Source: a phage
Reading direction: 5' to 3' (one strand)
Sequence record: PV874203.1
Length of the DNA: 64,000 nt
The stretch's first letter is position 1, and every line of letters starts with the position of its first letter. Positions 6,714 through 7,952 of this stretch are shown here, piece after piece. Both the position numbers and the translations under genes were made by a program. Below the pieces are notes generated by a model. That model was given only the letters and a program-made list of their open reading frames with translations, had not been told where the DNA came from and searched no databases.

Positions 6714-7311
6714 TAATCCAATCTAGATCTGATACTGCTGATTCGATGGTTGAGTCATTAAACAGTAGATATGTTTTTCTCTGCTCTCCTTCAATATATG
6801 AGCGAGAGTCTCCATCAAAAGAGCAACCGTCTCTAAGAACTTGGACAACTTGAACATGGAAATTCTTTTCTAGTTCTCGTACCTCTGCATCAAAACCTCC
6901 GTCAGTAAAAACAATAATGTCATCCTGACCTAACTCCTCTTGTTTGATACTCTTTACAGCGAGGTTCCCCATATGATTGTTGCCAAACATAGGTTTTAAG
7001 AAGTCTTCACTTGTAGAAATCATCAAATCTCTTACAGACTTCCCTCCCCACTCTGGTCTAGATTTTTCTTTCCATTCACGATCTTCATAGCGTGCTAGGA
7101 AATTTTCTAGAGGCATTCCTAGTGCAGCAGCAGCCACTCTATACATCGGCTCCTTGAAGGATTTGGTTAAATGATTGTGATGGTATGAATGTGCATCTAC
7201 CCAAGCACTAGCTATCGTATCTTTCCCACAACCCGGAGGCCCATTAAGAATTACTACTAAAGGCTTATAGTGGGAGCATTCCACTGTATTGGTCAATGCT
7301 AAATTACTCAT
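6676..7311 (-). CDS. P-loop NTPase, putative (deoxy)nucleotide kinase
   Basis: Walker [10 protein letters not shown] near the N-terminus; size about 210 aa. Confidence 0.55.
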
Positions 7312-7952
7312 GTTATCAGTCCTTGAAGTTCTTCTTTATCGAAATGCTTTTCTACTACATATTCATACAGATCTTTTAACTCTGCATAACGTCGGTAGAA
7401 AGTTCCATGTGACATGCCAATAGTTTTCTGAATGTGATCATGAGGAATACCCAAGAAAATCATTGAGAACATATTGGCTAACTTCTGAGTATCCATCGTA
7501 TCACTTAAATCTTGGAAGAAGTAGAAGATACGAGACTCCATGAATGGGTCACCAACAGAGTCTTGCTTATCCATGGCAAGCTCTAAAGGACTATCCACCA
7601 TATCAGGGGTACGGAACATATCAGCCTCTGGAATGGAGTAGATACGACGGTCCCCTACAGTCTGCCTATTTGATCGTATAGACCAGATAATGTTCTTGAC
7701 TCGATAAGTCATATGCTCTTGGTCTTTCTCGTCCTCTAGGACTCTCTCATCCTGCTTAGCGAAGACAAATCTCCAAGCGTTCAAGAGCACTTCCTGTGCC
7801 ACATCTTCTGCTTCATGGTAATCTCTGATATCGTACATGAAGAACTTGTGAACCACTTTCCAGTTCTCTTTGTAAAACTCTTCATAGTTTGCGATATATT
7901 TAATAGGAATTCCGTGAATGCGATATCTTGTAGGTGTTGTCTTCTTCGCCAT
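7308..7952 (-). CDS. Sigma-70 family (ECF-like) sigma factor
   Basis: Region 2-like [12 protein letters not shown] and a C-terminal HTH ([19 protein letters not shown]) resembling sigma region 4. Confidence 0.55.

Follow-up and report, generated by a model that had tools for sequence, protein, structure and literature searches.

We analysed a 64,000-nucleotide stretch of phage DNA (sequence record PV874203.1; the whole stretch is called the window below) and conclude that the gene at 7308..7952 almost certainly encodes an ortholog of phiEco32 gp36, the sigma factor with which a coliphage of the phiEco32 type (Gordonclarkvirinae, Kuravirus) switches the host RNA polymerase (RNAP). The open reading frame (ORF) of a sigma-like protein, which an earlier note had read from the letters of the DNA, is present exactly there. 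Its product matched PHROG 1740, ‘RNA polymerase sigma factor’ (E 8.9e-46), and phmmer aligned all 214 residues with chain F of PDB 9m7y, labelled ‘RNA polymerase ECF sigma factor’ (E 2e-143). The phiEco32 protein phi32_36 (ABY52837.1), annotated in the same words, is 98.1% identical over 214 amino acids, and so is 9m7y chain F. This identity, together with the collinearity of the window with phiEco32, bears out the note's surmise that the phage is phiEco32-like.

Conservation of the sigma factor

The gene, the domains of its product and the conserved contact residues are the following.

7308..7952, minus strand: sigma factor gene, phiEco32 gp36 ortholog; 214 amino acids, ATG start to TGA, stop codon 7308..7310
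Residues ~1-103: sigma-2-like N-terminal domain
Residues 104-137: linker
Residues 138-214: sigma-4-like C-terminal domain
Clamp-helix contacts: D44, E47, E49, D50, E54
-10 region contacts: E79, H80, Y83, R84, W90, S91, S94, N95
Flap-tip-helix contacts: M138, I142, F166, L167, F204
-35 region contacts: Y186, R187
gp79 contacts: F146, M164, L167, I169

The reading frame is unbroken, and translational coupling links it to both neighbours: its ATG shares bases with the stop codon of the upstream gene (TAATG), and its TGA with the start codon of the downstream gene (ATGA). Compared with phiEco32 gene 36, the sequence differs at 45 nucleotides, 41 of which leave the amino acid unchanged, and the product carries four conservative substitutions (S21A, V29E, I125L and F209L). 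The gene appears to be under purifying selection, since so many nucleotide differences produced just four amino acid changes. None of the substitutions falls on a published gp36 contact residue, and all 24 contact residues named in PMC12276001 (20 to RNAP or DNA and four to gp79, the partner of gp36) are identical in the window protein. Moreover, the residues with which gp36 reads DNA are invariant in 19 of 19 family clusters, down to 49% identity, and most of the 24 contact residues taken together are invariant as well.

The four differences from the characterised gp36, and flanks arranged otherwise than in phiEco32 (without gp35 and gp37), could be taken as signs of a decaying or specificity-shifted copy, in which the substitutions alter promoter recognition or abolish function. 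We consider this scarcely credible, given that the substitutions spare the contact residues, the bulk of the nucleotide changes are silent, the coupled reading frame is intact, and the promoter elements are unchanged at the five orthologous sites listed below.

We searched 50,697 phage records for relatives of the sigma gene with megablast and tblastn. The gene is carried by 99 of them, every one from a phage of Escherichia or Shigella that belongs to the phiEco32 group (Gordonclarkvirinae). Many of the related GenBank records label the gene ‘hypothetical protein’, and several give ‘chromosome segregation protein’ at the same position.

Partner protein, cognate promoters and mechanism

In phiEco32, gp36 and gp79 were discovered by mass spectrometry of RNAP purified from infected cells. 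The structure of gp36 on E. coli RNAP with gp79 and the promoter P68 was determined by cryo-electron microscopy (cryo-EM) at 3.4 Å (PDB 9M7Y; PMC12276001). The N-terminal domain (1-103) sits on the clamp helices and reads the -10 region, whereas the C-terminal domain (138-214) sits on the flap-tip helix and contacts -37G and -34A; the linker between them passes through the active-site cleft, like sigma region 3.2 (PMC12276001). The role of gp79 is to displace sigma-70 region 4 and to activate the gp36 holoenzyme (PMC12276001). In the resulting scheme, transcription of the early genes falls to the sigma-70 holoenzyme, and that of the middle and late classes to the gp36 holoenzyme (PMC12276001, PMC8948821).

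The gene of the activator lies 19 kb from the sigma gene.

26526..26774, minus strand: gp79 ortholog; 82 amino acids, 100% identical to phiEco32 gp79 (tblastn); PHROG 8339

Six gp36 promoters have been mapped, upstream of genes 6, 13, 26, 40, 58 and 68, with the consensus tAATGTAtA (PMC8948821). Five of them were found in the window at orthologous positions, in the correct orientation and as the exact published variants (PMC8948821 Table S3), and the sixth, P26, falls just beyond the window.

9314..9322, minus strand: P40 (middle), TAATGTATA; upstream of the gp40 homolog at 8507..9253; orthologous to phiEco32 36632..36640
16338..16346, minus strand: P58 (middle), TAATGTATA; orthologous to phiEco32 42937..42945
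20766..20774, minus strand: P68 (middle), aAATGTATA, a published variant; the promoter of the cryo-EM structure; orthologous to phiEco32 46862..46870
20796..20802, minus strand: -35 segment of P68, TTGGTAG; -37G at 20796, -34A at 20793
51918..51926, plus strand: P6 (late), TAATGTAgA, a published variant; upstream of 51938..52411
60218..60226, plus strand: P13 (late), TAATGTATA; upstream of 60260..61012

The 101 bases around P68 are identical to phiEco32 46862..46870 and its flanks. Exact copies of TAATGTATA number five in the window against 0.75 expected, and none of 100 shuffles reached five. When one mismatch was allowed, the element was not enriched in the window (26 matches against 20.7 expected), so the promoter calls rest on exact matches combined with orthologous position. 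We also observed an extra exact TAATGTATA at 47918..47926 on the minus strand, in the early-gene region, with neither a phiEco32 counterpart nor a -35 segment like that of P68; with 0.75 expected per window, chance could account for it.

The mechanism was established for the phiEco32 protein; what the window adds is the orthology of the protein with its contact residues intact, the gene of the partner, and the cognate promoters, found at the orthologous sites. By this correspondence, the host RNAP with sigma-70 would transcribe the early phage genes, after which the gp36 ortholog would join the host core. Its N-terminal sigma-2-like domain, placed on the β′ clamp helices, would melt the promoter and read AATGTA at -14 to -9, while the sigma-4-like C-terminal domain would dock on the β flap-tip helix and make the -35 contacts (R187 to -37G, Y186 at -34). 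The linker would run through the active-site cleft, in the manner of sigma region 3.2. The gp79 ortholog would displace sigma-70 region 4 from the core, its N-terminal helix clamping the C-terminal domain of gp36 and thereby stabilising the open complex. Together, the two proteins would turn the host polymerase from the host's genes and the early ones towards the phage's middle and late ones, making a phage RNAP unnecessary. Redirection of the host polymerase had been proposed from the gene content, and the proposal gains support from gp36 orthology with intact contacts, from gp79, and from the promoters at orthologous sites.

Genome context and the absence of a phage RNA polymerase

In local alignment, the window ran collinear with phiEco32 in the order 26477 -> 77554 -> 1 -> 12682, which makes it a circular permutation. 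At the DNA level, 87% of the window was aligned, its segments being 75-96% identical to phiEco32. One large stretch of phiEco32 alone has no counterpart in the window, 12683..26476 (~13.8 kb, the virion/lysis block with genes 15-26). The segment 50365..50535 aligns to both ends of the phiEco32 record (to the right end up to 77532 and to the left end from 1); because of this double alignment, a genome terminus and a terminal repeat probably lie inside the window, as in a circularly permuted or concatenated assembly.

The earlier note had listed a T7-type polymerase, primase-helicase, exonuclease and terminase. All four are present, but Pfam typed the terminase as T4-like and not as specifically T7-like.

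13054..14775: family-A DNA polymerase
23297..23851: separate 3′-5′ exonuclease
23845..25635: DnaB-type primase/helicase
5871..6713: 5′-3′ exonuclease
53499..54893: large terminase (Pfam Terminase_6N/6C)

The note had also seen no phage RNAP, and this held: among the window ORFs of at least 460 amino acids, no match to an RNA polymerase family was obtained. The same is true of phiEco32 genes 15-26, which we used as a stand-in for the missing ~13.8 kb; they matched tail-fibre, Ig-like, baseplate, tail-tip and DNA-ejection families, or else family-specific PHROGs of unknown function, and no RNA polymerase family. A phage RNAP encoded in that part of the genome would reduce the sigma factor to an accessory, not the main switch. 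There is room for such a gene, as the window contains no stretch matching phiEco32 12683..26476, and several large virion proteins encoded there, as well as gp26 (1473 amino acids), are without recognisable domains. The collinearity with phiEco32 on both sides of the gap, the family matches of genes 15-26 and the published assignment of early genes to the sigma-70 holoenzyme and of middle and late genes to the gp36 holoenzyme nevertheless make a phage RNAP very unlikely. As a separate candidate, gp26 was considered as an N4-type virion RNAP and rejected: it has no Pfam match, belongs to a family-specific PHROG of unknown function, and the published transcription data need no such enzyme.

As in phiEco32, a tRNA-Arg gene (anticodon TCT) is present, at 39587..39662 on the minus strand.

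Surroundings of the sigma gene

The sigma gene sits in the middle-gene cluster, between the spanin genes and the dNMP-kinase/exonuclease genes, and this position is conserved with phiEco32.

6676..7311: P-loop kinase-like protein, neighbour of the sigma gene

Relative to phiEco32, both flanks lack DNA. Downstream, gp35 (GTP-binding) and the 5′ part of gp34 are missing (654 bp; window 7300..7311), and upstream the macro-domain gene gp37 is missing (455 bp; window 7952..7956). In phiEco32, gene 36 is immediately preceded by a sigma-70 promoter close to the consensus, TGGACA-18-TATAAT, in the 3′ end of gp37. This promoter, predicted in both SU10 and phiEco32, is called the ‘own promoter’ of the sigma gene in the SU10 paper. 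Our scan for sigma-70 promoter and terminator consensus around the sigma gene did not rise above chance (11 against 12.9).

Directly upstream of the sigma gene, we observed an overlapping spanin-like pair on the minus strand (7952..8311 and 8097..8447), which consists of a 116-amino-acid ORF with an N-terminal hydrophobic segment and an out-of-frame ORF with a lipobox-like LSAC. The phiEco32 gp38 annotation (57 amino acids) may be too short, because it starts downstream of the lipobox signal. Between the gp40 homolog and the spanin and sigma genes lies a hairpin resembling an intrinsic terminator (8468..8485, minus strand; AGCCACC-TTCG-GGTGGCT followed by T7).

Relationship to the sigma-70 family

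The gp36 family is small and isolated. It comprises 19 clusters at no less than 49% identity among 5.8 billion entries, and when 1.84 billion representatives were searched with the family profile, only four clusters came up at E ≤ 1e-10. Behind them stood eight weak matches (E 3e-6 to 9e-4, significant but marginal), of which six pass Pfam Sigma70_r2 and most also r4_2; two of these weak matches to ECF sigma factors align over both domains. Modelled with AlphaFold on the family alignment, the protein shows two helical domains of high confidence, and the linker at 98-132 is disordered. The ortholog thus has the sigma-2 and sigma-4 folds joined by a linker, and fold comparison also ties it to ECF-type sigma factors. 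The distant family member P0021 reached just 17.7 bits against the sigma region 4 profile, whose cut-off is 25.7.

Two features of ECF systems were looked for beside the gene and at its targets. No anti-sigma domains were found in the neighbouring products (6676..7311; 7952..8447). ECF-type promoters have an AAC-type -35 element and a CGT-type -10 element. The cognate element here is tAATGTAtA instead, with a TTGGTAG-type -35 segment at P68. We conclude that the gp36 ortholog, with its sigma-2/sigma-4 fold, very probably works as a sigma factor, and that it forms a strongly diverged branch that has neither an anti-sigma partner nor a promoter of the ECF type.

Several points weigh against this assignment. 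Pfam Sigma70_r2 matched the window protein at 18.8 bits, below the cut-off of 24 (residues 31-62), and NCBIfam TIGR02937 (sigma70-ECF superfamily) at 25.1 bits, below 42.9 (residues 23-192); both weak matches are in register over residues 22-62. No Pfam match to Sigma70_r4 or r4_2 was obtained for the protein. The sigma-70 promoter upstream of the sigma gene is absent from the window because gp37 is absent, and expression would consequently come from further upstream; P40 is a putative source, and this route would need read-through because the strong hairpin at 8468..8485 intervenes. The ~13.8 kb outside the window were judged through phiEco32 only, which leaves a small formal doubt. Finally, it is by orthology that this allele would bind the core enzyme and act as gp36 does.

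Of the two findings that the earlier note had named as refuting its reading, neither was obtained: no phage RNAP gene was found in the window or in phiEco32 genes 15-26, and homology to sigma regions 2 and 4 is favoured by fold comparison and weak ECF profile links, although Pfam and TIGR02937 stayed below their curated thresholds, with no region 4 match. Because of these scores, the ‘sigma-70 family’ label rests on structure and weak profile links. They could also be read as the mark of a helix-turn-helix regulator or anti-sigma-like factor that only resembles a sigma factor and, with DNA or the holoenzyme as its target, leaves sigma in place, and the tiny, isolated family would suit such a protein. 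The published gp36 structure contradicts this, and we regard it as extremely improbable.

Comparison with known systems

The window system and that of phiEco32 share the length and near-identity of the sigma factor, its gene neighbourhood, the partner gp79 and the promoter element at the same genomic positions; they differ in the four substitutions and in the lack of gp35, gp37 and the gp37-borne promoter in the window. Compared with bacterial group 4 (ECF) sigma factors (M. tuberculosis SigE, SigK and SigL, E. coli RpoE), to which the sequence similarity of the window protein stays below the curated thresholds, gp36 has a rotated N-terminal helix 1 and a shorter C-terminal helix 4, and the flap-tip helix is consequently bound differently (PMC12276001). 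Its promoter element AATGTA is also unlike ECF promoters, and a dedicated activator, gp79, stands in the place of an anti-sigma partner.

Salmonella phage 7-11 gp47 is likewise a phage sigma factor of a phiEco32-related podovirus, with late promoters at similar genome positions (PMC8948821). However, it is only ~15% identical and uses a bipartite GTAAtg-N16-aCTA promoter (PMC8948821), and phage 7-11 lacks a gp79 homolog, host shut-off and a middle class of genes (PMC8948821). The p7 protein of Xanthomonas phage Xp10 resembles gp79 in being a small phage protein that displaces sigma from RNAP and inhibits host transcription (PMC3985653). Xp10 switches to its own single-subunit RNAP, whereas the switch here would be to a phage sigma factor on the host enzyme.

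A candidate seventh promoter and a conserved intergenic block

Back-to-back with P40 and directed against the middle genes, we found a further element of the gp36 type, followed by an unannotated conserved block.

9353..9383, plus strand: candidate seventh gp36-type promoter, GGTAGTAGATA-N11-TAATGTATA; TAATGTATA at 9375..9383
9476..9586, plus strand: unannotated intergenic block of ~100 nucleotides, ~90 nucleotides downstream of the candidate promoter; putative transcript 9390..9580

The GGTAGTAGATA part equals the P68 -35 segment at equal spacing, including the gp36-contacted -37G and -34A. The bipartite layout is kept in 17 of the 17 genomes fetched (three genera), with a spacer that varies. 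In ES17, an inserted ORF parts the candidate from P40, and for this reason we treat it as an independent element. The six published gp36 promoters do not include it, and an earlier description in Pavlova et al. 2012 is possible. Downstream of it, there is no ORF of at least 60 amino acids.

The block is 91-100% identical in all 99 sigma-gene records, including genomes whose sigma protein is only ~80% identical, and its conservation exceeds that of the genes beside it. In none of the 30 records listed is a feature annotated there, and the Rfam scan of the block returned no family, only chance-level matches (E > 2). The putative plus-strand transcript folds better than shuffles (z -3.5), and so does the opposite strand (z -4.5). 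The consensus fold has three elements: a hairpin at the 5′ end that carries compensatory changes, a second hairpin (GCAGG/CCUGC), and a helix of 15 bp in which G·U pairs are conserved. Covariation is weak and limited to the 5′ hairpin; at least as many covarying pairs as observed arose in 20 of 500 shuffles. Pairing in the helices is 99.5% on the plus strand against 92.3% on the minus strand, a modest difference that is biased since the structure was derived from the plus strand. A pattern scan of IMG/VR returned five contigs, mostly the same isolates, and thus added little diversity for the covariation analysis. The block is followed by an AT-rich stretch (9500..9800, GC content 0.26-0.28).

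It is possible, if rather doubtful, that the gp36 regulon has a seventh, undescribed promoter at 9353..9383 (plus strand), which makes a structured non-coding RNA of ~190 nucleotides with a 3′ part of ~100 nucleotides that is nearly invariant in three genera. The block would then belong to the sigma regulon. Such an RNA could have a regulatory or antisense role. Alternatively, it could serve as a primer for DNA replication at the AT-rich stretch, much as the primary origin of T7 pairs a promoter with AT-rich DNA. A terminator or leader on the minus strand is another candidate for the block; the long helix with its U-run at ~9498..9565 would then end transcription of the upstream operon if it is a terminator.

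Introns and homing endonucleases

Two genes of the window are interrupted by inserts, and both inserts are absent from phiEco32.

52737..53558, plus strand: terminase group I intron; exons 52530..52736 and 53559..54893; Rfam Intron_gpI 74.6 bits
12477..13084, minus strand: DNA polymerase intron, 608 nucleotides; exons 14775..13085 and 12476..12324; HNH-like ORF 12597..12992

The terminase insert interrupts the Walker A region (AANR|VGKS) of the large-terminase gene, exon 1 ending in U and the intron in G, and carries the ORF of a GIY-YIG homing endonuclease (52979..53554). Its removal yields a 513-amino-acid protein, 99.4% identical to phiEco32 TerL. The intron had no megablast match in the 50,697 phage records, and the relatives of its endonuclease share at most 43% identity. 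The DNA polymerase insert splits the catalytic motif C (DMH|DEG), again with U at the end of exon 1 and G at the end of the insert, and matched the group I model weakly (27.2 bits, below the cut-off). It also occurs in 11 related records, whose annotations show two polymerase genes and a homing endonuclease at this locus. From these sequence features, the two inserts appear to be group I introns.

In addition, we observed three free-standing HNH_3 endonuclease ORFs (4305..4928, 5383..5892 and 19909..20403, all on the minus strand), one with an AP2 domain, which coincide with blocks lacking a phiEco32 counterpart.

Significance

The gp36 system is already known, its genetics, biochemistry and 3.4 Å cryo-EM structure having been published. 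The sigma finding therefore adds little: it is a textbook-grade case of host RNAP takeover by a phage sigma factor, met again. Its practical value lies in annotation, as the labels of the sigma gene in related records can be corrected by transfer from phiEco32 gp36. The candidate seventh promoter with its block and the two introns are more novel. These side observations could matter more than the sigma finding: the terminase intron is unmatched among the phage records searched, and the conserved promoter and RNA-like element tied to gp36 would, if true, extend a well-studied regulon.
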